Shown: positions 11,743-61,772 of the stretch, one piece after another
Position numbering within the stretch: position 1 is the stretch's first letter
Layout of the letters: every line of letters begins with the position of its first letter
Source of the DNA: a virus
Strand: one strand, 5' to 3'
Length of the DNA: 64,000 bases
Virus record (IMG/VR): IMGVR_UViG_3300023202_000205
Span: 64,001 to 128,000 of that record
Program-made: the position numbers and the translations under genes
The notes under the pieces: generated by a model
What the model was told of the DNA's origin: nothing
Seen by the model: only the letters and a program-made list of their open reading frames with translations
Database searches by the model: none

Positions 11743-12540
11743 CTAGGAGATCGTAGACAACGCAGACGCTAACAGGTTGTCCCAGTTGACTTGGGCGTCG
11801 ACTGCATGGACGTCATCAATATCCAAAAACGGTGTAAAATCGGCAGCTTTCTCCATGTCAGGCACCTCTGACGTTAGAATCCAGTTGGCGCGACTCTGAT
11901 AAGGGATGCCCATGTGAAGCGGCGCTGCTTTGAGAATCTCAGCTACCTGCCTTCCTTTACGCTCGAGTGTATCCGCTACTGACCTCATGGATGGTCCGTG
12001 AAACCGATCGATGACGTTGACGTACATATGCCGGCAGCGCTCACACATCGTACCAAGGTAGCCCTCAAGGATCTCATTCCCCCCGTCATAAGCATCGGCA
12101 CACCCGAAGTCCCACTCATCAAAATGATCCTCGTAGAACCGTGCGGCGTCCTCTATAACGATGTTGAGTCTTCCCTCATCCATGTAGTGGACCAGGAGGG
12201 GGTAGTTATCCAACGCCACTTGGACCATTACCGGGTCAATCTCGATAATCGTCAGATCCACCCGAGGAAAGTTGTAAAGCAGCTGCACAGCGCCGGACCC
12301 GCTCCCGAGACCCACCATGGAGGCTGTAGCGCTTGGGTTCATAACGGCACCCAACATCCACCCGAGTGGGTAGATGGAGCTGGATATCGGCCCAGGAGCT
12401 CCGTATGGAAGTGACTCGTGAACGATGGCTGCTGAAGGCCTTAGGTAAGAAGCCCCCTGCTGTTGTCCATTCAGGAGCAGGATCCGTTGCTGGCCATGGT
12501 CTACGACCTCGATAACACCGAAACGTCCTTTACGCTGCAT
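11743..12540 (-). CDS. Spermidine-synthase-like SAM-dependent methyltransferase-fold protein
   Basis: LLLNGQQQG, MVGLGSGSGA (motif I), LTIIEIDPVMVQVA, IVIEDA and DAYD, matching the class I SAM-binding/spermidine synthase pattern. Confidence 0.8.
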   Translation of the reverse strand: MQRKGRFGVIEVVDHGQQRILLLNGQQQGASYLRPSAAIVHESLPYGAPGPISSSIYPLGWMLGAVMNPSATASMVGLGSGSGAVQLLYNFPRVDLTIIEIDPVMVQVALDNYPLLVHYMDEGRLNIVIEDAARFYEDHFDEWDFGCADAYDGGNEILEGYLGTMCERCRHMYVNVIDRFHGPSMRSVADTLERKGRQVAEILKAAPLHMGIPYQSRANWILTSEVPDMEKAADFTPFLDIDDVHAVDAQVNWDNLLASALSTIS

Positions 12541-15538
12541 CGACCGGAGCCCTCACCGCGTCCTCTTGCTCCTTCTTCTTACGCTTGAGATAACGAACAA
12601 GTGCCCTGGCCCGCGCACGATCCAACTGCCGGTAAGGCTTATTAGTCGCAAGCCCCATACTGGCATAGAAGTCCGTCAAAGCCTCCGTCGGGTCTACTGC
12701 CTCAAACCCCTCAGGTACCTGAGGAGTTTCCCCAACACGAAGACCAACACGGTATCCATGGAAACCCTCATCTGGAATACCCGATTCAGGCACAAAAGGT
12801 ATCTCCGACTCATAAGGAGCAGGCTTACCTGGTCCTTCCGTAGGCAGTGCAAAACGCCGCTGCGGCAACCTCCGAACAACCACCTTCCCCTCTGGCGTCA
12901 GAAGTATGTGCTGCTGCAGCGGTTTGAACTGCGCGACATCAGCAGTCTTATGTTGATCCACGCCCCCCGTACTCGCCCGATCCTTTTGGTCGAGCGTAGC
13001 CTGGACAGGTTGTTGCTGGGCAAACTCGATCTGCTCAGTGGCTTCTGGAGTATCGTCGAAGACTTCCGACTGTACGTCCTGAGAAGAATCCCTGCTCCGC
13101 AGGTGCGTATTCCCACCAAGATCAGGGTCAAGCTGCCCGGGAGACGGAATAAGCGCTGCCCTCTTTAGAATAGCCGAATAGTCGAGCCCCGTCTTCGTAG
13201 CAGCACCGGCGTTTGCCGCCAGTTGTTGCTGCTCATTCTCCGTAGGGCCAATCACGCCAGGGGCTGGCTGATTCATAGCTGTACCGGGGGCCTCCGTCTT
13301 TACCGGGAGTGCTGGGTTTTGCGCCCCATTGTCCAGCTCAGCAAGAATCTCTTCCTCATCCTCCGTATCGGGAATGGTCGCGATCTCGTCGTCATCCGCA
13401 GCTCCCGTACCAATCGTCTGGTCAGGGATCTCAGCGGCGGTCACCTGCATACCTGGTTGGGGTTGCTGCAAAGGCTGGGAAGGCATCTGAGGAGGAGCCG
13501 CATGCTGGGCCATGGGAGGTTGGCCGGTAGCCTGCTGACCCTGCTGTCCCTGCATCAACTGCCTGACAAAATTCTGAGCAACGAATTCAGGATCACCTTC
13601 CTCCAATCGCTGCTGAGAAGGGAGGGGCACCTGCTGACCACCTTGAGCAGGTGGTTGCTGGGCTGGCATACCCGCTTGGTCAGCAGGCGGCTGGTCTGCG
13701 CCCTCCGGAGGAGGAGGCGGAGGGGCAAAAGCCGCACTCTGCGCCTGCTTGGCTGCTGCATATTTGTTGTATGCCAACTCAACCCTCTGAAGCACCTCGA
13801 TAGGGGGCTCCATCGCGTGCTCAGTATAGGTGTCCGCCAGCTTGACTGCTCGGGAAAGCTCAGACAGGAGCTCCTCCGAGGCATGTTTGAACTTGCCTGC
13901 ATCCTCAATATCCCCGACCTGCGTATGCTTCTGCTCTACCTTATGAGCTGAAGTAAGACCATCGGCAGTACGAGCACTACCTGGAGCAGTCTTAGGCTTC
14001 TCGGTAGCAACGGCGTGTATATCGGTGTTAATCTGATCCGTCCAGGTCCCTCTCTGACCGCTACTATAGTCCGTTTCATAATCGTCATGACGCACCTGCT
14101 CCCCATAAGCAGAACCAGCTTGTTTAACCGGTTTGAGAGAAGACTTCACTTTGGCTAGCCGCTTAGCGTTGGCTACGAGCTGGCGGCGCTCCTCGTTATT
14201 GCGCTTTGCCCACCCCTGATCCTCTCGGTCGATCAACTCCTTTAAGCGGGAGAGGACCTTATCGAACGGCATCAACTCGAAGTCTTCCTGGTCGTCGTGA
14301 GTGATGCCTGCCTCACCAGCATCTACCCCGAAAAAGAAGTACGTGCGCTCTCCATCGAAATCTGAGTTATCCCAGAACTCGTTGCCACTATCCTTTGGCC
14401 ACACGGCCTCAACTGTACCAGCGTTGTAAACATTGATAGGGTGGCGGTTCGACTCTTCGATCGTCTCACGAATGGCGGCGTCTCGAGGCTGCTCGCCATC
14501 ATCGACACCCCCACCTGGAAACAGGAGATAGTCGCCTTTATCAATTGCGTAAACCCCACCCGTGTTGAATAGAATCATCTCCGACCGAGGCCGTAGCTTG
14601 TTCTCAGGAGCGGAATCGTGGTGATCAACGAGAGGCTCCCGCTCTTCACCAGCTGTTTTCCCCTGCTCAGAACCTCGCCAAAGACGGCACCAGTGCTCCG
14701 GCTGGATCTCGCCCCGTACCTGTGAGCAGATGTACTTGCCACTCACCACTTTCTGAAAGGCGAACTTGCAACTACCGCACTTCTGCTCCCCTCGGGGCTC
14801 CTTTTTGTAGGTTGCCAGCTCTTTGGACATCTTGTAATTAGGCGTTCCCGACCCGAGCAGGTAGTAGAGCAGTGGAGTCTCCCGCTGCTCCTCTTCCGGC
14901 AATTTGTGGAACCGCTCGATAGCCTGCTGTACCCCTGGAGGGGCATCTTTACCTGCTCCTGGGTAGTGGGTCAGGTTACCGTGCTCATCCTCACCTCTAC
15001 GCTCCAAAAGCCTCTGATACATCCCCTTGATGTCTGCAGACTCCGCCGCCAACTTACCATTCTCGATCAATTGGTCCTGCTCAATCTGGCGAAGCGCCAG
15101 CTTGATCTGCGCCTCTTCAATCCACTCACTAATTTTGTGGAAGCCAACAGGCATACCCGAAGAGTAGCGGTCCACCTTTTCAATGTACTTCATGAGATTA
15201 GCGTTACTCGGACGGGCTGGGTTACCACCAGTAGGGGTCGTATAGAAAGGTTCGTTTCTCTTGGGGGAAAGATCCTGCTCGTCTTTCACACCAGCCTCCT
15301 TGGTCACAGCCTCCAGCGCCTCTATAGCTGCTTCTACATCTCGTCGTGTCCGGGCTTTGGTAGCCTCGACTACTTCAGAGATCGCGCTTACAGGTAGGTC
15401 TGCTACCCGCTGAGCAAGCGTTTTGTTCTTTTTGCGAGTAGGGCGCTTGGCATCAGGTACGCGTTTATACGACTTCCGTGAGCCGATGACGTCACGCAGT
15501 CTCTTACCCAAGCTCGAGGTAAACTGTGGCTGATTCAA
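12530..15538 (-). CDS. Multidomain polyprotein-like protein containing a HiPIP-like [4Fe-4S] domain and a Nudix hydrolase domain
   Basis: 1002 aa. CGSC-x13-C-x11-WC (KCGSCKF...ICSQVRGEIQPEHWCRLW) at about 14675-14840. Nudix box GGGVDDGEQPRDAAIRETIEES at about 14449-14516. Pro/Gln-rich linkers. Confidence 0.8.
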   Translation of the reverse strand: MNQPQFTSSLGKRLRDVIGSRKSYKRVPDAKRPTRKKNKTLAQRVADLPVSAISEVVEATKARTRRDVEAAIEALEAVTKEAGVKDEQDLSPKRNEPFYTTPTGGNPARPSNANLMKYIEKVDRYSSGMPVGFHKISEWIEEAQIKLALRQIEQDQLIENGKLAAESADIKGMYQRLLERRGEDEHGNLTHYPGAGKDAPPGVQQAIERFHKLPEEEQRETPLLYYLLGSGTPNYKMSKELATYKKEPRGEQKCGSCKFAFQKVVSGKYICSQVRGEIQPEHWCRLWRGSEQGKTAGEEREPLVDHHDSAPENKLRPRSEMILFNTGGVYAIDKGDYLLFPGGGVDDGEQPRDAAIRETIEESNRHPINVYNAGTVEAVWPKDSGNEFWDNSDFDGERTYFFFGVDAGEAGITHDDQEDFELMPFDKVLSRLKELIDREDQGWAKRNNEERRQLVANAKRLAKVKSSLKPVKQAGSAYGEQVRHDDYETDYSSGQRGTWTDQINTDIHAVATEKPKTAPGSARTADGLTSAHKVEQKHTQVGDIEDAGKFKHASEELLSELSRAVKLADTYTEHAMEPPIEVLQRVELAYNKYAAAKQAQSAAFAPPPPPPEGADQPPADQAGMPAQQPPAQGGQQVPLPSQQRLEEGDPEFVAQNFVRQLMQGQQGQQATGQPPMAQHAAPPQMPSQPLQQPQPGMQVTAAEIPDQTIGTGAADDDEIATIPDTEDEEEILAELDNGAQNPALPVKTEAPGTAMNQPAPGVIGPTENEQQQLAANAGAATKTGLDYSAILKRAALIPSPGQLDPDLGGNTHLRSRDSSQDVQSEVFDDTPEATEQIEFAQQQPVQATLDQKDRASTGGVDQHKTADVAQFKPLQQHILLTPEGKVVVRRLPQRRFALPTEGPGKPAPYESEIPFVPESGIPDEGFHGYRVGLRVGETPQVPEGFEAVDPTEALTDFYASMGLATNKPYRQLDRARARALVRYLKRKKKEQEDAVRAPVDAA

Positions 15539-19085: not shown

Positions 19086-20015
19086 CTATGAACCAGTTAA
19101 TGCTAGCCCCCACTTGTCTACCAGATAACTGATGATGTCGTCATGCTCTTGGTCACCGACCGTCCAGTCTAGTCCGGTGTCAGTCGAGTACTCGAACATT
19201 TCACCAAGCGCTACTGACGGCCCCAGAGAATCGATAGTGATTAGTTCGCCCCCATTAGACGGCCATCTGGTAGAGGTGCCGGTAAACGTAGTGGCGAGGA
19301 CATCATCGACATACCAAGTGGAATCTAGTCCATTGTTGCTGATCTCCACCGTTATCACATAAGGGCCTTCTAATTTACCATATATGAAGGTTGTATTATC
19401 GGCCAGTCTAATTCGATTGATGTTACCCTGTTGGAATATCGAGTGTGATGATCCTCTTCTTGGTATGTGAGAACCGCCCGCAGGGGAGGTGTCGTCAAGC
19501 CTTTGGGCCACTACGTACATGATACGCCGCGACGTATCGGACGCCGGCGGCGACGATCCAGGATAGGACAGATTGGTATTGGAGCCCAGTTCGTCGCTGA
19601 TTGTATTCAACCCGTTAATCGTATGGACGCCATAATCCATCTGAGCGTTAGTATCGCTCGCAGGGTCCCCCCACACACCAGACTTATCGGTGACTTCTCT
19701 ATCCGAGCCTACTATATTGACTGAGGACGCGTCACTCAAGTCATACCAGTAATAGAGACCATTGAAGGAATCCGGCCCGCCTCCAGAGGGCTCGGCATCG
19801 TCTGACACCTGCTTGGCCGTTTCAAAGGCTGCCTTGTCGAACTCCACAGGAGGGATTATGTCATCATAAAACTCGGGATCCTCTTGGGCAGACATCCTCA
19901 CTAAAACCTTGCTGGGGTCCCCCGGCTTTTCATGCCACGTTTTGACCTTACGAAGATCGTAAGCAGGACTGTCGCCCCCTGCTGGGTACCAAATGTGGTC
20001 AGATGTAACGGTCAT
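19086..20015 (-). CDS. Tail-associated protein with LamG/concanavalin-like domain
   Basis: YWYDLSDASSV...VTDKSG, and a C-terminal IISYLVDKWG, as in phage lectin-like tail modules. Confidence 0.55.
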   Translation of the reverse strand: MTVTSDHIWYPAGGDSPAYDLRKVKTWHEKPGDPSKVLVRMSAQEDPEFYDDIIPPVEFDKAAFETAKQVSDDAEPSGGGPDSFNGLYYWYDLSDASSVNIVGSDREVTDKSGVWGDPASDTNAQMDYGVHTINGLNTISDELGSNTNLSYPGSSPPASDTSRRIMYVVAQRLDDTSPAGGSHIPRRGSSHSIFQQGNINRIRLADNTTFIYGKLEGPYVITVEISNNGLDSTWYVDDVLATTFTGTSTRWPSNGGELITIDSLGPSVALGEMFEYSTDTGLDWTVGDQEHDDIISYLVDKWGLALTGS

Positions 20016-33549: not shown

Positions 33550-33621
33550 TAGCCCCACCCGGACTCGAACCGAGACCCCCAGGGCCAGAACCTGGTGCTC
33601 TACCAATTGAGCTATAGGGCG
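33550..33621 (-). tRNA. tRNA-Gln(CUG)
   Basis: Reverse complement folds as a cloverleaf: D arm GCTC-AATTGGTA-GAGC, anticodon arm CCAGG-TT CTG GC-CCTGG, T loop GGTTCGAGTCC. Confidence 0.85.
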
Positions 33622-33634
33622 CTAAGATGCTTCC

Positions 33635-33931
33635 ATGAACCCACTCTTCTCCGCTCTCGCTGATGCCTTTGGAAAAGTCACTGGTGCGTGGCTCTACTTT
33701 ATCGGTAGTGAGGTTGTCCTCGTCACGTCGGCTGTGTCGCTACTCCTGGCAAATAGCGACGCTACCTTCGACTCATTCAACGAGCCACCTGCACCACCCC
33801 CAGAGCCACCTAGCTACGCTTTCATCGCCTACGTCATGCTGGGGTTTGTCCTGCTACGAGCTGCATGGTTGATGGGTGGACTCCTTTTTGCCAAGAAAGC
33901 TATTGAGAAGGCCGTCGAGAAAGACGGGTAA
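33635..33931 (+). CDS. Small two-TM membrane protein
   Basis: 98 aa; two hydrophobic helices separated by a Pro-rich loop. A rare plus-strand gene, inside the tRNA cluster. Confidence 0.55.
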   Translation: MNPLFSALADAFGKVTGAWLYFIGSEVVLVTSAVSLLLANSDATFDSFNEPPAPPPEPPSYAFIAYVMLGFVLLRAAWLMGGLLFAKKAIEKAVEKDG

Positions 33932-34001
33932 AGCCCGGCCAGGAATCGAACCTGAGCACCCAGGGCCAAAACCTGGTGCACTACCACTATGCTACCGAGC
34001 T
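33932..34001 (-). tRNA. tRNA-Gln(UUG)
   Basis: Anticodon arm CCAGG-TT TTG GC-CCTGG; T loop GGTTCGATTCC. Confidence 0.85.
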
Positions 34002-34005
34002 ATAT

Positions 34006-34090
34006 CGGAGAGGGTGGGATTCGAACCCACGGAGGCTCACGCCTCGACGGTTTTCAAAACCGCTGCATTCAACCGCTCTGCCACCTCTCC
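34006..34090 (-). tRNA. tRNA-Ser(UGA)
   Basis: GGAGAGGTGGCAGAGCGG...GCGGT-TT TGA AA-ACCGT, long variable arm, GGGTTCGAATCCCACCCTCTCCG. Confidence 0.93.
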
Positions 34091-34095
34091 CCATA

Positions 34096-34169
34096 TCGGA
34101 ACAGCAGGATTCGAACCTGCGACCTTCTGGTCCCAAACCAGACGCTCTGCCAAACTGAGCTATGCTCCG
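34096..34169 (-). tRNA. tRNA-Pro(UGG)
   Basis: CGGAGCATAGCTCAGTTTGGCAGAGCG TCTGG-TT TGG GA-CCAGA...GGTTCGAATCC. Confidence 0.93.
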
Positions 34170-34173
34170 GTAA

Positions 34174-34246
34174 CTGCCCAAGCAGGACTCGAACCTGCAA
34201 CCTCGGCGTTAACGGCGCCTTGCTCTACCAATTGAGCTACTGGGCA
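34174..34246 (-). tRNA. tRNA-Asn(GUU)
   Basis: TGCCCAGTAGCTCAATTGGTAGAGC...GGCG-CC GTT AA-CGCC...GGTTCGAGTCC; atypical C33. Confidence 0.8.
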
Positions 34247-34252
34247 ATAAAC

Positions 34253-34326
34253 TGCGGAAGATGGGACTCGAACCCATAACAAGCGGTTTAGAAGACCACT
34301 ACTCTATCCAATTGAGTTACTTCCGC
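34253..34326 (-). tRNA. tRNA-Arg(UCU)
   Basis: GCGGAAG-TA-ACTC...GAGT, GTGGT-CT TCT AA-ACCGC, GGGTTCGAGTCCC. Confidence 0.9.
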
Positions 34327-34333
34327 ACGACAA

Positions 34334-34404
34334 TGCTGCACCGAGGAATCGAACCCCGCTCCCTGGGTTACAAAGCCAGAGCATCGCCACAATGCTTGTG
34401 CAGC
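34334..34404 (-). tRNA. tRNA-Thr(UGU), probable
   Basis: Acceptor stem GCTGCAC/GTGCAGC; anticodon loop TT TGT AA with a C31:C39 mismatch; T loop GGTTCGATTCC. Confidence 0.7.
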
Positions 34405-40660: not shown

Positions 40661-40981
40661 GTCACAGATACCAAACCTCTAAGCGGGCATAGCGAGGAGT
40701 ACCAGGGCCAGACGATCCACCTCGGCACCATAGTCAGTCACAGATACCAAGCCTCTGAGCGGGCATAGCGAGTGAGCGCGGGGTAGCTAACAGTCATTTA
40801 GGGGGCGTCACAGATACCAAGCCTCTGAGCGGGCATAGCGAGCACCCAACGGATCCCTCGTTCTCAGGCACAGTCACAGATACCAAGCCTCTGAGCGGGC
40901 ATAGCGAGCTCAGCACAGCGCTGGTCGGTGGGCGCCCGCTGGTCAGTCACAGATACCAAGCCTCTGAGCGGGCATAGCGAG
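40661..40981 (-). CRISPR. CRISPR mini-array, 5 repeats / 4 spacers, no cas genes in window
   Basis: 36-nt repeat GTCACAGATACCAAGCCTCTGAGCGGGCATAGCGAG at 40661 (2 mismatches), 40737, 40807, 40873 and 40946. Unique spacers of 40, 34, 30 and 37 nt. The degenerate repeat is on the left and a leader-like flank on the right, implying minus-strand transcription. Confidence 0.92.
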
Positions 40982-41052
40982 AGGGCCTTTATAACTAGGT
41001 TCATGGAACCGTGTTATATCGATATCCGCGAGAGCCCTCATCTCAGCTGATC
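40982..41052 (-). promoter_or_regulatory. Conserved CRISPR leader-like flank, copy 1
   Basis: About 70 nt, near-identical to 41757..41827; contains nested inverted repeats. Confidence 0.7.
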
Positions 41053-41173
41053 CTAGCACCCTTTAGATCACTGCAATATCTCCACCTAAACCACTATCAG
41101 CAAAGAACATCGAGCGCCTCCCAGGTTTTCCCGACCAGAAAGGCGCTCGAAACTTGCTGACAACCCTCACTCA

Positions 41174-41189
41174 GTGTTCACGCGAACAC
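41174..41189. promoter_or_regulatory. Palindrome copy GTGTTCACGCGAACAC
   Basis: Between the HTH gene and the CRISPR leader. Confidence 0.75.
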
Positions 41190-41258: not shown

Positions 41259-41651
41259 CTAGAATAGTACAGATAATTTACCTATGAGGCGTCCGATCTC
41301 CTCCGCTGGCACACGCCAGAGGTGAGGTCCAAGCTTACGAGCTTCGATACGGCCGTCTCGAGCCATGCGACGAACAGTCTCCTCACAAAGGCCTAGAATC
41401 GTCGCCGTTTCTCTGATGGTATAGGCTGAGTCTGAAACGATACAGACATCCAGCTTCTGATGGGAAGGGAGCCACCGCCGATCACCAATGCGGACGATCA
41501 ACCCAAGCTTCTCCGGATTACCCCAGGCGGGTTCTGTGCCGCGCTCCCAGAGCGAATCCGTCATCGATTTGGCTGGATTTTGATAGACCGCCCTGACGAA
41601 CTCGGCTTCCAAGTCGCTCAGTAGGTCGTTTAGCAGAACTGCTCTGCTCAT
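41259..41651 (-). CDS. Excisionase-like HTH (HTH_17/MerR-type) DNA-binding protein
   Basis: C-terminal YTIRETATILGLCEETVRRMARDGRIEARKLGPHLWRVPAEEI; AAAGGAG Shine-Dalgarno sequence. Confidence 0.85.
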   Translation of the reverse strand: MSRAVLLNDLLSDLEAEFVRAVYQNPAKSMTDSLWERGTEPAWGNPEKLGLIVRIGDRRWLPSHQKLDVCIVSDSAYTIRETATILGLCEETVRRMARDGRIEARKLGPHLWRVPAEEIGRLIGKLSVLF

Positions 41652-41720
41652 AATGCACTCCTTTATTGGTTTGAGTTAATGGTTTACGTATGTCAGATAC
41701 GTCAGTGTCAGTCAGTGTCA

Positions 41721-41827
41721 ATCACAGATACCAAGCCTCTGAGCGGGCATAGCGAGAGGGCTCTTATAACTCGGCTCAGGGAACCGTGTTATATCGCTAT
41801 CCGCGAGAGCCCCCATTTCAGTCGACC
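41721..41827 (-). repeat. Solitary CRISPR repeat plus second leader copy
   Basis: Repeat at 41721..41756 (35/36 identical), followed by a flank homologous to 40982..41052. Confidence 0.9.
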
Positions 41828-42530
41828 CTAGCTTTATCCCCCTCGCCATGGGTTTCCCGCTCTCCTGCCAGATACAGCAGGTCTCGAACGGTGATGTGAA
41901 CAAACTCGCCGGGCCTGCCTTGTTCACGAGCCCAGTCGATAATCGACTGGATATGGTCAGGCCATTCCTGCTCTCCTTCAGTCTCCTCCGTCATAGTCTC
42001 GCTCTCTTTCGTGATAGGGCTCTGGATAAATGGCCAGGGTACATTTGACAATGGTGAACGGGGCTGACTTACCCGTTATACGCTCTTTGGCCAGCTCAAG
42101 CGCTTCTCCCTGTGTACGAGCGAACGTACCCCATCGGAACGCACCATGACTGGTAACAGCACAGTAACCGGGTACTGCCTGCTGCTTCACATATCCTTTC
42201 TTATACCGTGGTGGAATACTCATGCCTACACCTCCCGTACTTCTACTGGGAGAAACTAACCGGAAACTATCTGGTAGATTCCTCAACAATGTTTGGCCCC
42301 CAATGCGTCAAACCGCCTACCTTGGTAGATGCCTTCCACTTACCTCTGCTACGCTGCACCAACTTGTAGGCGCAGTCATCACAGATCAGTGCTTGAAGGT
42401 GGTCAGTATCGTTCCCACTTCCATACCCGAAGTGCATGGCGATTACACCTGCTTTAAAGAAACAACCGTCCTGGTGACAGGCGATGTGGTCTAGGCAGAG
42501 GACGCATTGTTCTTCTGTGGGTTGTCCCAT
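41818..42530 (-). other. Three small hypothetical ORFs (41818..42051, 41978..42289, 42267..42530)
   Basis: Tightly packed minus-strand ORFs; the last has two CxxC motifs. Confidence 0.5.
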
Positions 42531-47219: not shown

Positions 47220-47253
47220 GTGTTCACGCGAACACAGTTGTCCGCGTGAACAG
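47220..47253. promoter_or_regulatory. Palindrome copy GTGTTCACGCGAACAC plus adjacent degenerate copy TTGTCCGCGTGAACAG
   Basis: Intergenic tandem site. Confidence 0.75.
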
Positions 47254-47418: not shown

Positions 47419-47449
47419 GTCACAGATACCAAGCCTCTGAGCGGGCATA
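47419..47449 (-). repeat. Solitary truncated CRISPR repeat
   Basis: 31 nt identical to the first 31 nt of the array repeat. Confidence 0.85.
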
Positions 47450-48659
47450 TCAAGCGCACCACGCCGCTGATCTTGGTGGTTAGCTGGCCCCCGGCACCCC
47501 ATAGTTCTCATGGATCCACTGCAGCGCAGGCAGGCTCGTGTTACGGATCGCTTCGTGCAGCTCCTTCACGTAGTGAGTCTCGCCGTCGTGCATGTGGACG
47601 AACTTCGGGCAAGCCCACAGCTCGACGGTAAGGCCTTCGGCGTGATACGTTATCGCAGTGTAATGGTCGGCCTCACCTTGCTCACGGCGGTCTTCCGTCA
47701 AACGAATGAGCAGAACCGCCATATCGCCCAGTGAGAGGTCCTTGAGGATCTTGGCGGCCGTCTCTTTGGTCTTCATCACGTCTCCTGGTGTTCCGTGGCG
47801 CCGGGAGAAGACTGGCTACCACTGATGTCGGTGTGACCGCAGTCGTCCTCATCATCAGTTACCTGCATAATGATCGGCTCGCCGGTCGCCGGGCACGGGA
47901 CCCAGTGGGTCCATTCATCGGACCCGCCAGCTGGGCGGCTGAACTTCCGGAAGGTCAGGTCGGAATGCGTGCCGCCGCATCGCGCGCAGTCACGCACGGT
48001 AACAGGCCGCGGGAAGCGCTCAGCGTTATCGGAGCCGTGAGCTGCGGCCTCCAAGCGAGCAACAACGCAGTCGTCATCGTGCCCTTTGCCCGTGTGGTAA
48101 GCGGGTCCGCCGCATAGTGAGCAGTTGGCGTCCACCTGGTTAGTCAGCTTGACGATGGCATCACGTGCTTCACGTAGGAGTTCGGCAGTTGGTTGTGTCA
48201 TTGATCGATCCTTTGGTAGTTGCATAGGTTGATCACAGAACCCGATCACGCCGTGTTCTTCGGCGGCTTGCGTCTCACGCTTCACCTACTCCCCTTCCAA
48301 TATGGTCATCTCCCCGTCTCTCACCTGCTGCTGCAGCGCATCTCGCTCGAAGGTGAGGGCGCGGACGGTTTCGACCAGTTCCGGTGCAGCGGCAAGTAGG
48401 TCTGCGTCCGCACGGGATATCAGACCTCCTAGATACCCGTGACCGACAGGGCCGTAAACGTCCCAGGATTGCTCCTGTTCGTTCCACACGGCATGATACG
48501 GCCCCGGCGTGTACCCAGTGGGTAGATCTTCAGATGTCGGCATCGTTGGCCTCCTTTTGACGATGGGTTTGAGCGTCCTCTCTCCCGAGTTCGTAGTACC
48601 TGAGGTAACGCTTACCCCAGGTTCGGGCAACATGGCCCCGCCCGTCATAGCGGCCAAGA

Positions 48660-54440: not shown

Positions 54441-57089
54441 CTAGCTCTGGTGAGCTATGGTGGTCTCGTCGAAACCACAGATGGATTCGTGAGCTTCGCG
54501 ACACGTTGTCGCGTTAGCGTCGACAGGCATGGCGTACACCCGGCCAGTCGAGTTATCTGAGCCATACAGATATTGGTCTGCGTGCATGTCCTGAACCAGG
54601 ATACGGGGAAGACCGTGGTACATGTCCGAGTCAACTAATTTAGTATCGGTATCCCCTAGATATCGCTCAATCCCGTATCGTTCGATCAATACACGACGCA
54701 CCTCTGCGTTTACTTCTCCCCCAATCTCTTCGAGGGTTATCAAGTGAGGTTCCATGATCACGTGTTCTTTCACCCGCACACCATGCCAGTGATATAACGA
54801 CCACCCGTCCCGCCACCTATGCGAAGGACCTTCCTCACAATGTGCGCGGTTTTGCCTGTCTGTAAAGACTACCTCGGGGTTTTCACTTACTACACAGAAC
54901 TTTTCATGAAAACACTGAAAACCACCCTCAGCCGCATCCTCGTAATGTCTCCACTTCTCATACTCCGGGAGATCCAACCAACCCATCTCCCGGAAAGCTG
55001 TGATGAAAGTAATCCAACCGCCCCACGTGCGGCCTCCCTGGTAAACACGGCCCCACTTAGTGGCACAGCCAACAGCATTCTTTATAGAAATGCCAGTCCT
55101 ACAACAGAACAAAGCAACGCCGCATAACACCTGCGAAAGAGTATCCTTTGACCACTTAACCTCTTTCGCCTTACTCATTTCAGCATACACAGCTTCGCGG
55201 GTGGCGTCGCCCACAGCTTCGTGGGTGGCGTCGGACACAGCTCTGAGGGTGGCTTCGTCCACAGCTCTGTGGGTGGCGTCGGACACAGCTCTGAGGGTGG
55301 CGTCGGACACAGCTCTGAGGGTGGCAGCATACACAGCTTCGCGGGTGGCGTCGTCCACAGCTTCGCGGGTGGCGTCGTGCACAGCTCTGTGGGTGGCGTT
55401 GTGCACAGCTCTGAGGGTAGCGTCGGACACAGCTCTGTGGGTGGCTTCGATCACAACATCGCCGGTGACGGCATACACAGCTTCGCGGGTGGCTTCGTCC
55501 ACAGCTCTGTGGGTGGCGGCATACACAGCTTCGCGGGTGGCTTCGTGCACAGCTCCGAGGGTGGCGTCACCCACAGCTTCGCGGGTGACGTCGTCCACAG
55601 CTCTGTAGGTGGCTAAGTCCACAGCTTCGCGGGTGGCAGCGAACACAGCTTCGCGGGTGGCGTCGTCCACAGCTTCGTAGGTGGCGGTGTCCACAGCTTC
55701 GTGGGTGGCGTCGTCCACAGCTTCGTGGGTGGCGTCGTCCACAGCTCTGAGGGTGGCGTCGTGCACAGCTTTGCGGGTGGCGTCGCTCACAGCTCTGAGG
55801 GTGGCGTCGTGCACAGCTTCGAGGGTGGCGTCGTCCACAGCTCTGTAGGTGGCTAAGTCCACAGCTCTGAGGGTGGCGTTGTGCACAGCTTCATGGGTGG
55901 CGTTGTGCACAGCTTCGCCGGTGGCGTCGTTCACAGCTCTGAGGGTGGCGATGTCCACAGCTTCGAGGGTGGCGTCGTGCACAGCTCTGTAGGTGGCGTT
56001 GTGCACAGCTATGCGGGTGGCGTCGTCCACAGCTTCTTGGGTGGCGTCGCCCACAGCTTCGTGGGTGGCTTCGTGCACAGCTTCGCGGGTGGCGTCGTGC
56101 ACAGCTCTGTGGGTGGCGTTGTGCACAGCTCTGAGGGTAGCGTCGGACACAGCTCTGTGGGTGGCGTCGTCCACAGCTCTGCGGGTAGCGTCGGACACAG
56201 CTCTGTGGGTGGCGAAGTGCACAGCTCTGAGGGTGGCGTCGTCCACAGCTCTGCGGATGGCGATGTGCACAGCTTCGCGGGTGGCGTCGCCCACAGCGTC
56301 GGACACAGCTTCGCGGGTGGCGTCGTCCACAGCTCTGTGGGTGGCAGCGAACACAGCTCTGAGGGTGGCAGCGAACACAGCTTCGCGGGTGGCGGTGTCC
56401 ACAGCTCCGAGGGTGGCGTCGTCCACAGCTTCGTAGGTGGCGTCGCCCACAGCTTCGTGGGTGGCGGCATACACAGCTTCGCGGGTGGCTTCGTCCACAG
56501 CTCTGTGGGTGGCGGCATACACAGCTTCGCGGGTGGCGTCGGACACAGCTCTGAGGGTGGCGTCGGACACAGCTCTGAGGGTGGCAGCGAACACAGCTTC
56601 GCGGGTGGTGGCGTCCACAGCTTCGTGGATGGCTTCGTGCACAGCTTCGTGGGTGGCGTCGTCCACAGCTCTGTAGGTGGCTAAGTCCACAGCTCTGAGG
56701 GTGGCGTTGTGCACAGCTTCATGGGTGGCGTTGTGCACAGCTTCGCCGGTGGCGTCGTTCACAGCTCTGAGGGTGGCGTCGTGCACAGCTTCGAGGGTGG
56801 TGTCGTGCACAGCATCGCGGGTGGAAGGCCTCGGCATAGACTTAGAGGACTCCTGCCCCTGACGATACCACCACAAGGCAGCCGTACCATAAACCAATGC
56901 CATCTGCAGGGGGCTATCAACAATCACTACTTTCGGTTCCGATAGTCCTGCAGATTCGTATAACCCTCGAATACCGCTGATAACGCGGTCCCGATCACAA
57001 CGCTCGGTAGAGCGCGTATGTTCGATCCACTTTTCTGTATGTTTCTTCAGGTTCTCGTAGTCCTGTTCCGTTAAGTCAAGGTGCAGCAT
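54441..57089 (-). CDS. DUF6745-like domain protein with large octapeptide repeat expansion
   Basis: Start at 57089 after an AAAGGAG Shine-Dalgarno sequence. C-terminal CVVSENP..DRQNRAHCEEGPSHRWRDGWSLYHWHGVRV..NAEVRRVLIERYG, recognised from memory as DUF6745-like. Confidence 0.8.
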   Translation of the reverse strand: MLHLDLTEQDYENLKKHTEKWIEHTRSTERCDRDRVISGIRGLYESAGLSEPKVVIVDSPLQMALVYGTAALWWYRQGQESSKSMPRPSTRDAVHDTTLEAVHDATLRAVNDATGEAVHNATHEAVHNATLRAVDLATYRAVDDATHEAVHEAIHEAVDATTREAVFAATLRAVSDATLRAVSDATREAVYAATHRAVDEATREAVYAATHEAVGDATYEAVDDATLGAVDTATREAVFAATLRAVFAATHRAVDDATREAVSDAVGDATREAVHIAIRRAVDDATLRAVHFATHRAVSDATRRAVDDATHRAVSDATLRAVHNATHRAVHDATREAVHEATHEAVGDATQEAVDDATRIAVHNATYRAVHDATLEAVDIATLRAVNDATGEAVHNATHEAVHNATLRAVDLATYRAVDDATLEAVHDATLRAVSDATRKAVHDATLRAVDDATHEAVDDATHEAVDTATYEAVDDATREAVFAATREAVDLATYRAVDDVTREAVGDATLGAVHEATREAVYAATHRAVDEATREAVYAVTGDVVIEATHRAVSDATLRAVHNATHRAVHDATREAVDDATREAVYAATLRAVSDATLRAVSDATHRAVDEATLRAVSDATHEAVGDATREAVYAEMSKAKEVKWSKDTLSQVLCGVALFCCRTGISIKNAVGCATKWGRVYQGGRTWGGWITFITAFREMGWLDLPEYEKWRHYEDAAEGGFQCFHEKFCVVSENPEVVFTDRQNRAHCEEGPSHRWRDGWSLYHWHGVRVKEHVIMEPHLITLEEIGGEVNAEVRRVLIERYGIERYLGDTDTKLVDSDMYHGLPRILVQDMHADQYLYGSDNSTGRVYAMPVDANATTCREAHESICGFDETTIAHQS
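55185..56822 (-). repeat. In-frame 24-nt tandem repeat, about 68 units, encoding AVxxATxx
   Basis: Plus-strand unit is approximately CACAGC(TCT/TTC)NNGGGTGGCNNNNNN; includes higher-order duplicated blocks. Confidence 0.95.
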
Positions 57090-57381
57090 TGTGCACTCCT
57101 TTCCTGTAGAGCAGGGAACGGCTCTTACCGTCCCTTGCAGTTTTCTAGAATAGCTGATAGTTTTCAAACAACCAGCATAGAAGGGTCACTAGAGAGTATC
57201 GTCATAAGTCGTGTGTCTGTAGGGGTTTACGTACCCCGCGATACCAGACCTTATCAGCCCTCCCAAAACAACCCCACTTTACCCATCTTTCTGACACATG
57301 TCGCCACAGACGACAAAACCCCATTATCCAAATAACACCCCTTTGATCACTTTTTGAGCGATAACAAAACGACTCTTTGAG

Positions 57382-61736: not shown

Positions 61737-61772
61737 GTCACAGATACCAAGCCGCTGAACGGGCATAGCGAG
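61737..61772 (-). repeat. Solitary CRISPR repeat
   Basis: GTCACAGATACCAAGCCGCTGAACGGGCATAGCGAG, 34/36 identical to the array repeat. Confidence 0.9.

Follow-up and report, generated by a model that had tools for sequence, protein, structure and literature searches.

Positions 40661-40981 of the window, by which we mean the whole 64,000-nt stretch analysed here (bases 64001-128000 of a 179,364-bp IMG/VR virus record, G000, estimated to be 96% complete), carry a short CRISPR array of five 36-nt repeats and four unique spacers, called array 1 below (Table 1). On the plus strand the repeat consensus reads GTCACAGATACCAAGCCTCTGAGCGGGCATAGCGAG; the direct repeats are nearly identical, four of them being exact and the left-most one having two mismatches, and their start-to-start distances of 76, 70, 66 and 73 nt leave spacers of 30-40 nt. 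With up to three mismatches allowed, the repeat was matched eight times in the window, compared with 0.00 times in 100 shuffles. The five-repeat phage array with spacers of 40/34/30/37 nt, which the initial annotation had described, is confirmed by these data, and the spacers read exactly as they were first quoted. One pair of spacers shares a 10-mer, which is the chance level, and otherwise no such sharing occurs; an 11-nt word common to spacer 1 and a spacer of array 3 was considered and judged to be due to chance. Tandem Repeats Finder did not report an array at 40661-40981, as expected, since the spacers are unique.

An additional GTCA, a copy of the first four bases of the repeat, directly precedes repeats 2 and 5 (40733-40740 and 40942-40949), as well as the lone repeat at 41721 (41701-41724) and the first repeat of array 2, where it forms a run (genome 165042-165053). 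It may be a trace of imprecise insertion or of slippage at the repeat junction. If GTCA is counted as a part of the repeat, the spacers of array 1 measure 36/34/30/33 nt and are still uneven.

Table 1. Repeat arrays of the phage, parts of array 1 and associated genes (window positions unless marked as genome positions; L009 is a locus handle)
Feature	Position	Strand	Description
Array 1	40661-40981		5 repeats; spacers 40, 34, 30, 37 nt
Repeat 1	40661..40696	-	trailer-end, oldest copy; 2 mismatches to consensus
Spacer 1	40697..40736	-	40 nt, 60% GC; GC by codon phase 0.57/0.31/0.92, coding-like
Repeat 2	40737..40772	-	exact; extra GTCA before it on + strand
Spacer 2	40773..40806	-	34 nt
Repeat 3	40807..40842	-	exact
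Spacer 3	40843..40872	-	30 nt
Repeat 4	40873..40908	-	exact
Spacer 4	40909..40945	-	37 nt, 73% GC; leader-proximal, presumably the newest of the array
Repeat 5	40946..40981	-	exact, leader-proximal; extra GTCA before it on + strand
Leader	40982..41153	-	172 nt; shares 88-94% identity with the matching flanks of arrays 2 and 3
HTH_17 / excisionase-type DNA-binding gene	41259..41651	-	130 aa; directly upstream of the array cassette
Lone repeat with ~76 nt of leader end	41721..41832	-	repeat 41721-41756 (genome 105721); 1 mismatch
Lone repeat	47419..47454 (genome 111419)	-	2 mismatches
Lone repeat	61737..61772 (genome 125737)	-	2 mismatches
All lone repeats	genome 36523, 105721, 111419, 125737, 129413, 168435		+ strand letters
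Array 2	genome 165054-165637		9 repeats; spacers 37, 38, 20, 36, 20, 39, 35, 35 nt
Array 3	genome 171934-172828		13 repeats; spacers 19, 37, 37, 37, 37, 35, 40, 38, 36, 37, 36, 38 nt
Cas12m-like (type V-M) gene	genome 166465-168345 (L009:6465-8345)	-	626 aa, between arrays 2 and 3

Repeat copies, leader and direction of reading

Array 1 is a part of a larger set, as the whole genome contains 33 copies of the repeat, all in the same plus-strand letters and 21 of them exact, which make up three arrays and six lone copies. One of the lone units, at 41721..41832, duplicates the segment 40942-41057 at 90% identity and lies 69 nt ahead of the start codon of the HTH_17 gene. Lone repeats stand before genes, including cas12m (genome 168435), and the same is seen in G004 (IMGVR_UViG_3300023202_000336), a complete phage genome of 180,134 bp that was reached through terminase alone, and whose terminase and Cas12m-like protein are 62% and 33% identical to those of G000. 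The repeat was found nowhere else in IMG/VR (searched with a 29-mer), nor in JGI metagenome contigs and GTDB representative genomes (22-mer); as these searches located it in this genome alone, and as the effector discussed below has just 14 detectable homologues, comparative support is thin.

The right flanks of the three arrays share the conserved 172-nt leader and their left flanks are unrelated to each other. At the left end, the outermost repeat is degenerate in 3/3 arrays, and fragments of further decayed repeats are left outside arrays 2 and 3. With the leader conserved on one side and the repeats decaying on the opposite side, the arrays have the polarity expected of CRISPR. The cas12m gene and nearly all other genes of the phage are on the minus strand. 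In loci L012, L013, L044 and L046, as well as in G004, the array lies downstream of a cas12m-like gene on the same strand and its repeats end in GAC. The minus-strand form of our repeat differs from the G004 repeat at 6/36 positions; a core YGCUCAGAGG is common to the repeats of G000, L013 and G004, and the repeat end UCUGNGAC is common to G000 and L013. In an alignment of 16 repeats a 3-bp stem is supported by covariation, two of its pairs having compensatory changes, and the repeat thus belongs to a family found beside homologous effectors and running in the same direction. From the sequence, the array is read on the minus strand, and therefore the repeat in RNA would be CUCGCUAUGCCCGCUCAGAGGCUUGGUAUCUGUGAC and the guides would be reverse complements of the spacers as first quoted.

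The occurrence of single repeats in front of genes might also bring to mind an iteron, an operator array or some other regulatory tandem repeat that has nothing to do with CRISPR. We give almost no credence to such a reading: each stretch between the repeats is unique and has the length of a spacer, a cognate Cas12m-like gene is present, related arrays are placed downstream of homologous effectors, and the repeats have the covariation-supported stem in common.

A terminator-like hairpin (arms 41110-41126 and 41134-41150) forms the upstream end of the leader, and a T-rich run comes after it on the minus strand. In the direction of transcription the order is the lone repeat with its leader end (41832-41721), the HTH_17 gene (41651-41259), the hairpin and leader (41153-40982) and the array (40981-40661). 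A search of the leader for a sigma-70-type promoter recognised none; the phage encodes at least one sigma-factor-like protein. Genes round array 1 have no counterpart in G004, and this surrounding is therefore a variable region.

Several other elements of the window and the genome can be mentioned here. A 14-bp palindrome, TGTTCACGCGAACA, which may be an operator or a hairpin element, has 8 copies in the genome at one mismatch or less, of which six are in the window (41175-41188, 47221-47234, 10758, 30541, 51921 and 60969) and the others are at genome positions 58786 and 139632; one copy is located between the HTH_17 gene and the leader of array 1. The sole Rfam finding in the window is a cluster of seven tRNAs (33550-34404, minus strand). 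Two long phage ORFs of the minus strand contain recognisable domains, NUDIX in the 1002-aa one (12530-15538) and DUF6745 in the 908-aa one (54441-57167).

The Cas12m-like effector and its companion gene

Array 1 is not Cas-less, because the same genome encodes a matching Cas12m-like effector, about 61 kb away and outside the 64-kb window. Against PADLOC the protein matches Cas12u1 at 9e-71, over 527/533 profile positions, and Cas12f at 2.6e-69, V-U1 being the former name of subtype V-M (PMC11013384); among solved structures the top match is 23vw_A, a 'CRISPR-associated DNA-binding protein Cas12m' (2.3e-40), and Cas12m2 (8hhl/8hio) is matched at 3.4e-7. An effector of the Cas12m family is thus encoded in the genome that carries the array, and neither cas1 nor cas2 was found there. 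Homologues of the effector are rare: 14 were detected among 5.8 billion proteins, and a search of IMG/VR by peptide patterns yielded no close relatives.

The catalytic site of the effector is altered. At RuvC-I its AVMPGW aligns with AIDLGW, the form A-I/V-D-x-G-W being present in 23vw_A and the distant homologues, and at RuvC-II its VVIPD aligns with IVLEE, the same proteins having V-I/L-E-D/E. The site therefore reads M/P/D, with Met for the RuvC-I Asp, Pro for the RuvC-II Glu and an Asp near the third position. The Met/Thr and Pro substitutions recur in the two nearest homologues, P0001 (43% identity) and P0002, and the distant ones keep D/E/D. In the literature, every Cas12m with a DED, HDD or NDD site binds DNA and leaves it uncut (PMC11013384, PMC10442227). 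An M/P/D site should accordingly not cleave either, and by extrapolation from these other Cas12m clades the effector probably binds DNA without cutting. The same proteins use a single 50-60-nt crRNA without a tracrRNA and read an 18-bp heteroduplex (PMC11013384, PMC10442227).

The bacterial type V-M systems of MmCas12m/Cas12m2 and GoCas12m (PMC10442227, PMC11013384) resemble the phage system in the compact effector of about 600 aa, with significant sequence matches, in the 36-nt repeats and in the lack of an adaptation module; by homology, the phage system is also expected to work with a single crRNA, to need no tracrRNA and to interfere through binding along an 18-bp heteroduplex. The differences are also considerable. 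The system of G000 is carried by a phage, its RuvC site is M/P/D instead of DED, HDD or NDD, and the identity of its effector to the solved proteins is low. These bacterial systems have one array beside the gene, whereas G000 has three dispersed arrays and lone repeats, with spacers falling into two length groups (about 19-20 and 30-40 nt). The G000 effector has, in addition, a Lys-rich C-terminal tail and is followed by a conserved gene of about 200 aa.

This gene stands directly after the cas12m-like gene in 3/3 loci of the subclade with altered RuvC (L009:5813-6454:-, i.e. genome 165813-166454; L012:2818-3411:+; L045:1826-2443:+), its products being 24-30% identical with 26 invariant columns, and no Pfam, NCBIfam or PADLOC profile matches it. 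A ParB/Noc-like DNA-binding domain was considered for it from an AlphaFold model (pLDDT 72), whose matches were weak (E above 1), and we do not rely on it. The C-terminal tail of the effector itself, Lys/Ser-rich (KKSKKS...) and of about 60 aa, is shared by P0001 and absent in the distant homologues. The Cas12f1-like_TNB zinc ribbon (PF07282) is matched a second time elsewhere in the genome (44210-44284, minus strand, L020; 9.1e-8), in a 137-aa open frame that may be a remnant of TnpB or of a Cas12.

The presence of the effector also bears on the possibility that the repeat RNAs are decoys, soaking up a Cas12m-type effector of the host in the manner of Racr anti-CRISPRs. Viral solitary repeat units and mini-arrays can indeed act as RNA anti-CRISPRs (PMC10651486), and our phage carries six lone repeats. 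Such a decoy, however, would have no need of four unique, foreign-looking spacers; the phage encodes a matching effector of its own, homologous effectors adjoin arrays of the same repeat family, and the 22-mer of the repeat occurs in 0 GTDB representative genomes and 0 JGI metagenome contigs, so that a cognate effector is found on the side of the phage and the repeat is absent from the genome and metagenome contigs where a mimicked one would be sought. We consider the decoy function very improbable.

Length, origin and targets of the spacers

Spacers of uneven length, which the initial annotation had pointed to as unusual for this array, are real, but they are not special to array 1 and characterise the system as a whole, relatives included. 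The 24 spacers of G000 range from 19 to 40 nt, three of them having 19-20 nt and the remainder 30-40 nt. In G004 the cas12m/array region (107707-110199, or L040:7707-10199), where, like in G000, a lone repeat stands about 90 nt before the cas12m-like gene, includes an array of nine repeats with spacers of 35/20/33/19/18/35/35/35 nt. G003, which was assembled independently, has the same array without a difference, and the short spacers of G004 are therefore not assembly errors. There is also an internal duplication in it, one 35-nt spacer being present twice with a difference at the first base. At the locus of the closest effector homologue, L012, spacers measure 26-36 nt, and in the more distant loci L013, L044 and L046 their lengths are regular. 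The shortest spacers, of 18-20 nt, are about as long as the 18-bp heteroduplex of Cas12m, with the exception of a 15-nt gap between two degenerate lone repeats of G004. It is a reasonable inference, by analogy with the characterised proteins, that only the first 18-20 nt act as a guide and that longer spacers are tolerated.

The composition of the spacers differs from that of the phage. All 24 together have a mean of 63.2% GC, and the four of array 1 have 63.1%, compared with 54.4% in the genome; length-matched genome fragments give 54.4 ± 1.6%, and 0/5000 sets reach the value of the spacers (P<2e-4). The same holds for G004, with 63.5% in the spacers and 53% in the genome. The GC content of the spacers also has a 3-nt period, which is stronger than in shuffled spacers (P=0.0013). 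By virtue of both features most spacers look like protein-coding DNA from a GC-richer source, which suggests, from composition, that they are captured pieces of foreign coding DNA and would fit the host or other elements of that host. Spacer 1 had earlier been described as protein-like in its reverse complement; it does look coding, though the frame on the plus strand, EYQGQTIHLGTIV (GC3 0.92), is better than the one first quoted, DYGAEVDRLALVL (GC3 0.62).

Searches for targets of array 1 were made at several scales. In a blastn-short run of all 24 spacers against the own genome, the four of array 1 gave matches of no more than 11-12 nt, which is the chance level and bears out the earlier impression, gained by eye, that nothing in the window matches them. 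No hit below E=2 was obtained when each array was compared with GenBank phages by blastn, and none below E=1 when array 1 was compared with PLSDB plasmids. No protospacer was found in IMG/VR with exact 20-mers from the repeat-proximal end of all four spacers, in JGI metagenome contigs and GTDB genomes with an exact 22-mer of the leader-proximal spacer, or, for array-1 spacers, in four related viral records and the whole of G004. The exact 20-22-mer scans of the collections and the blastn searches thus gave no protospacer for the spacers of array 1 from which a 5' PAM could be read; the large scans take exact 20-22-mers, and diverged targets would therefore be missed by them. For the suggestion made at the outset, that the spacers silence competing phages or host genes, this means mixed support: the array is genuine, its spacers look foreign and coding-like and the effector belongs to a family of DNA-binding silencers, but no protospacer came out of the searches.

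The lack of protospacers would agree with an inert relic, i.e. an array cassette that arose by duplication, has ceased to be expressed or used and contains spacers that have outlived their targets. Adaptation genes are absent, the sigma-70 search recognised no promoter, array 1 sits in the variable region with surroundings that have no G004 counterpart, and the array of G004, being identical in two samples, gives no sign of turnover. Nevertheless, 4/5 repeats of array 1 are exact and follow the same consensus as 17 other exact copies, while the leaders have drifted to 88-94% identity, which suggests that the repeats are being kept; the cassette of hairpin and leader is intact as well. Missing protospacers are usual for environmental spacers, and the searches needed exact 20-22-mers. 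A relic seems to us unlikely on these grounds, and a silencing system with usable guides remains our preferred reading.

One spacer of the phage does have a perfect match, and it is in the phage itself. The second spacer from the leader in array 3 (genome 172683-172718; L009:12683-12718) matches the own genome at 36/36 positions, at 19251-19286 (L016:9251-9286), which are codons 22-33 of a 218-aa acidic ORF (genome 18695-19351) located directly downstream of a sigma-factor-like gene. The guide would have the sense of the mRNA, and therefore would pair with the template strand. The flank of the site, …GAGTTGGC, is a single case and too little to define a PAM; the guide may regulate the ORF, or its match may be inactive because of an unsuitable PAM. 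Peptide patterns disclosed no relatives of the targeted gene in IMG/VR, and a 14-nt match of the same spacer in G004 was set aside as chance, since it is not at a homologous gene.

From this match it could be supposed that the phage directs its DNA-binding effector, through the guides, to sites in its own DNA and so times the expression of its genes. The position of the match within the 5' end of an ORF, the ability of a non-cleaving effector to tolerate self-targets, and the lone repeats that precede genes, cas12m included, in both G000 and G004 would be in agreement with self-regulation. Array 1 gives it no support, however, since matches of its spacers to the own genome do not exceed 11-12 nt, the chance level; moreover, the GC content of the spacers is more than 5 sd from that of the phage, and the flank of the self-match, …TTGGC on the non-target strand, is not an adjacent TTN PAM of Cas12m2 (PMC10442227). 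We regard self-regulation as the role of this array as quite improbable.

Proposed function and relation to known systems

We propose, and hold to be likely, that the phage encodes a type V-M-like (Cas12m-like) silencing system with three arrays, of which the one at 40661-40981 provides guides for DNA-binding silencing. Each array is a self-contained minus-strand cassette made of the hairpin, the 172-nt leader and the repeats with spacers. Its transcript, as can be supposed from the characterised Cas12m proteins, would be processed to single crRNAs by cleavage inside the repeats, a tracrRNA not being needed, the handle being the 3' part of the repeat (ending ...GUGAC) and the guide being the first 18-20 nt of the next spacer. 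The effector, having neither the RuvC-I Asp nor the RuvC-II Glu, would then bind PAM-flanked DNA that matches the guide, so that transcription or replication of this DNA is blocked and the DNA itself stays uncut. Because about 18 bp of the guide are read and spacers of about 18-40 nt would be tolerated, uneven lengths would persist. For the four spacers of array 1 the most likely source is coding DNA, rich in GC, that belonged to the host or to another element. Several points weigh against this reading: the searches described above gave no protospacer for array 1, no sigma-70-type promoter was recognised in its leader, cas1 and cas2 are absent, the effector gene is about 61 kb from the array, and comparative material is scarce.

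We may go one step further, into a scheme that is worth entertaining though we find it doubtful: that this lineage of phages of about 180 kb has a distinct Cas12m subtype, in which two RuvC residues are lost, the gene of about 200 aa is a partner, hairpin-leader-repeat cassettes are seeded over the genome, and spacers are added without Cas1-Cas2 and without a length ruler, the whole being used against GC-rich foreign or host DNA and at least one own gene. Addition without a ruler would explain the classes of about 18-20 and about 33-40 nt, the GTCA duplications and the lack of spacers under the 18-bp heteroduplex. How arrays gain spacers when Cas1-Cas2 are absent is a testable question, raised by the wide range of the spacer lengths and by its lower limit near the 18 bp that Cas12m reads.

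Short arrays without adaptation genes reportedly accompany CasΦ in huge phages, and exclusion of competitors is said to have been proposed for them. Virus-borne mini-CRISPR arrays in interviral conflicts (PMC6858448) are similar to ours in being short, in lacking adaptation genes and in their proposed part in competitor exclusion. The archaeal mini-arrays, however, borrow the Cas machinery of the host and target close relatives (PMC6858448), whereas G000 brings an effector of its own and does not target the related phage G004. The viral solitary repeat units of RNA anti-CRISPRs (PMC10651486) are likewise scattered over a viral genome as lone repeats; unlike them, G000 has a true array with spacers together with its own effector, and there is no known host repeat for it to mimic.

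The nearest case is MvCas12m of the myxophage MV-1, reported in September 2026 as the first phage Cas12m (bioRxiv 10.64898/2026.09.14.751636). Compared by description, both loci combine a phage Cas12m with an array, lack cas1/2/4 and a tracrRNA, and have yielded no protospacer. MV-1, a temperate phage from a MAG, keeps the D-E-D triad and has one array beside the gene, in contrast to G000, where two of the three RuvC residues are missing, the arrays are multiple and dispersed, and one spacer is self-targeting. A phage Cas12m has thus been reported once before, with an intact RuvC, and G000 adds a second, independent phage lineage. If its arrays are active, this phage carries a programmable repressor and not a nuclease, a natural CRISPRi directed against competitors, the host or its own genes, and the compact 626-aa effector, predicted to bind and not to cut, would also be a candidate tool.
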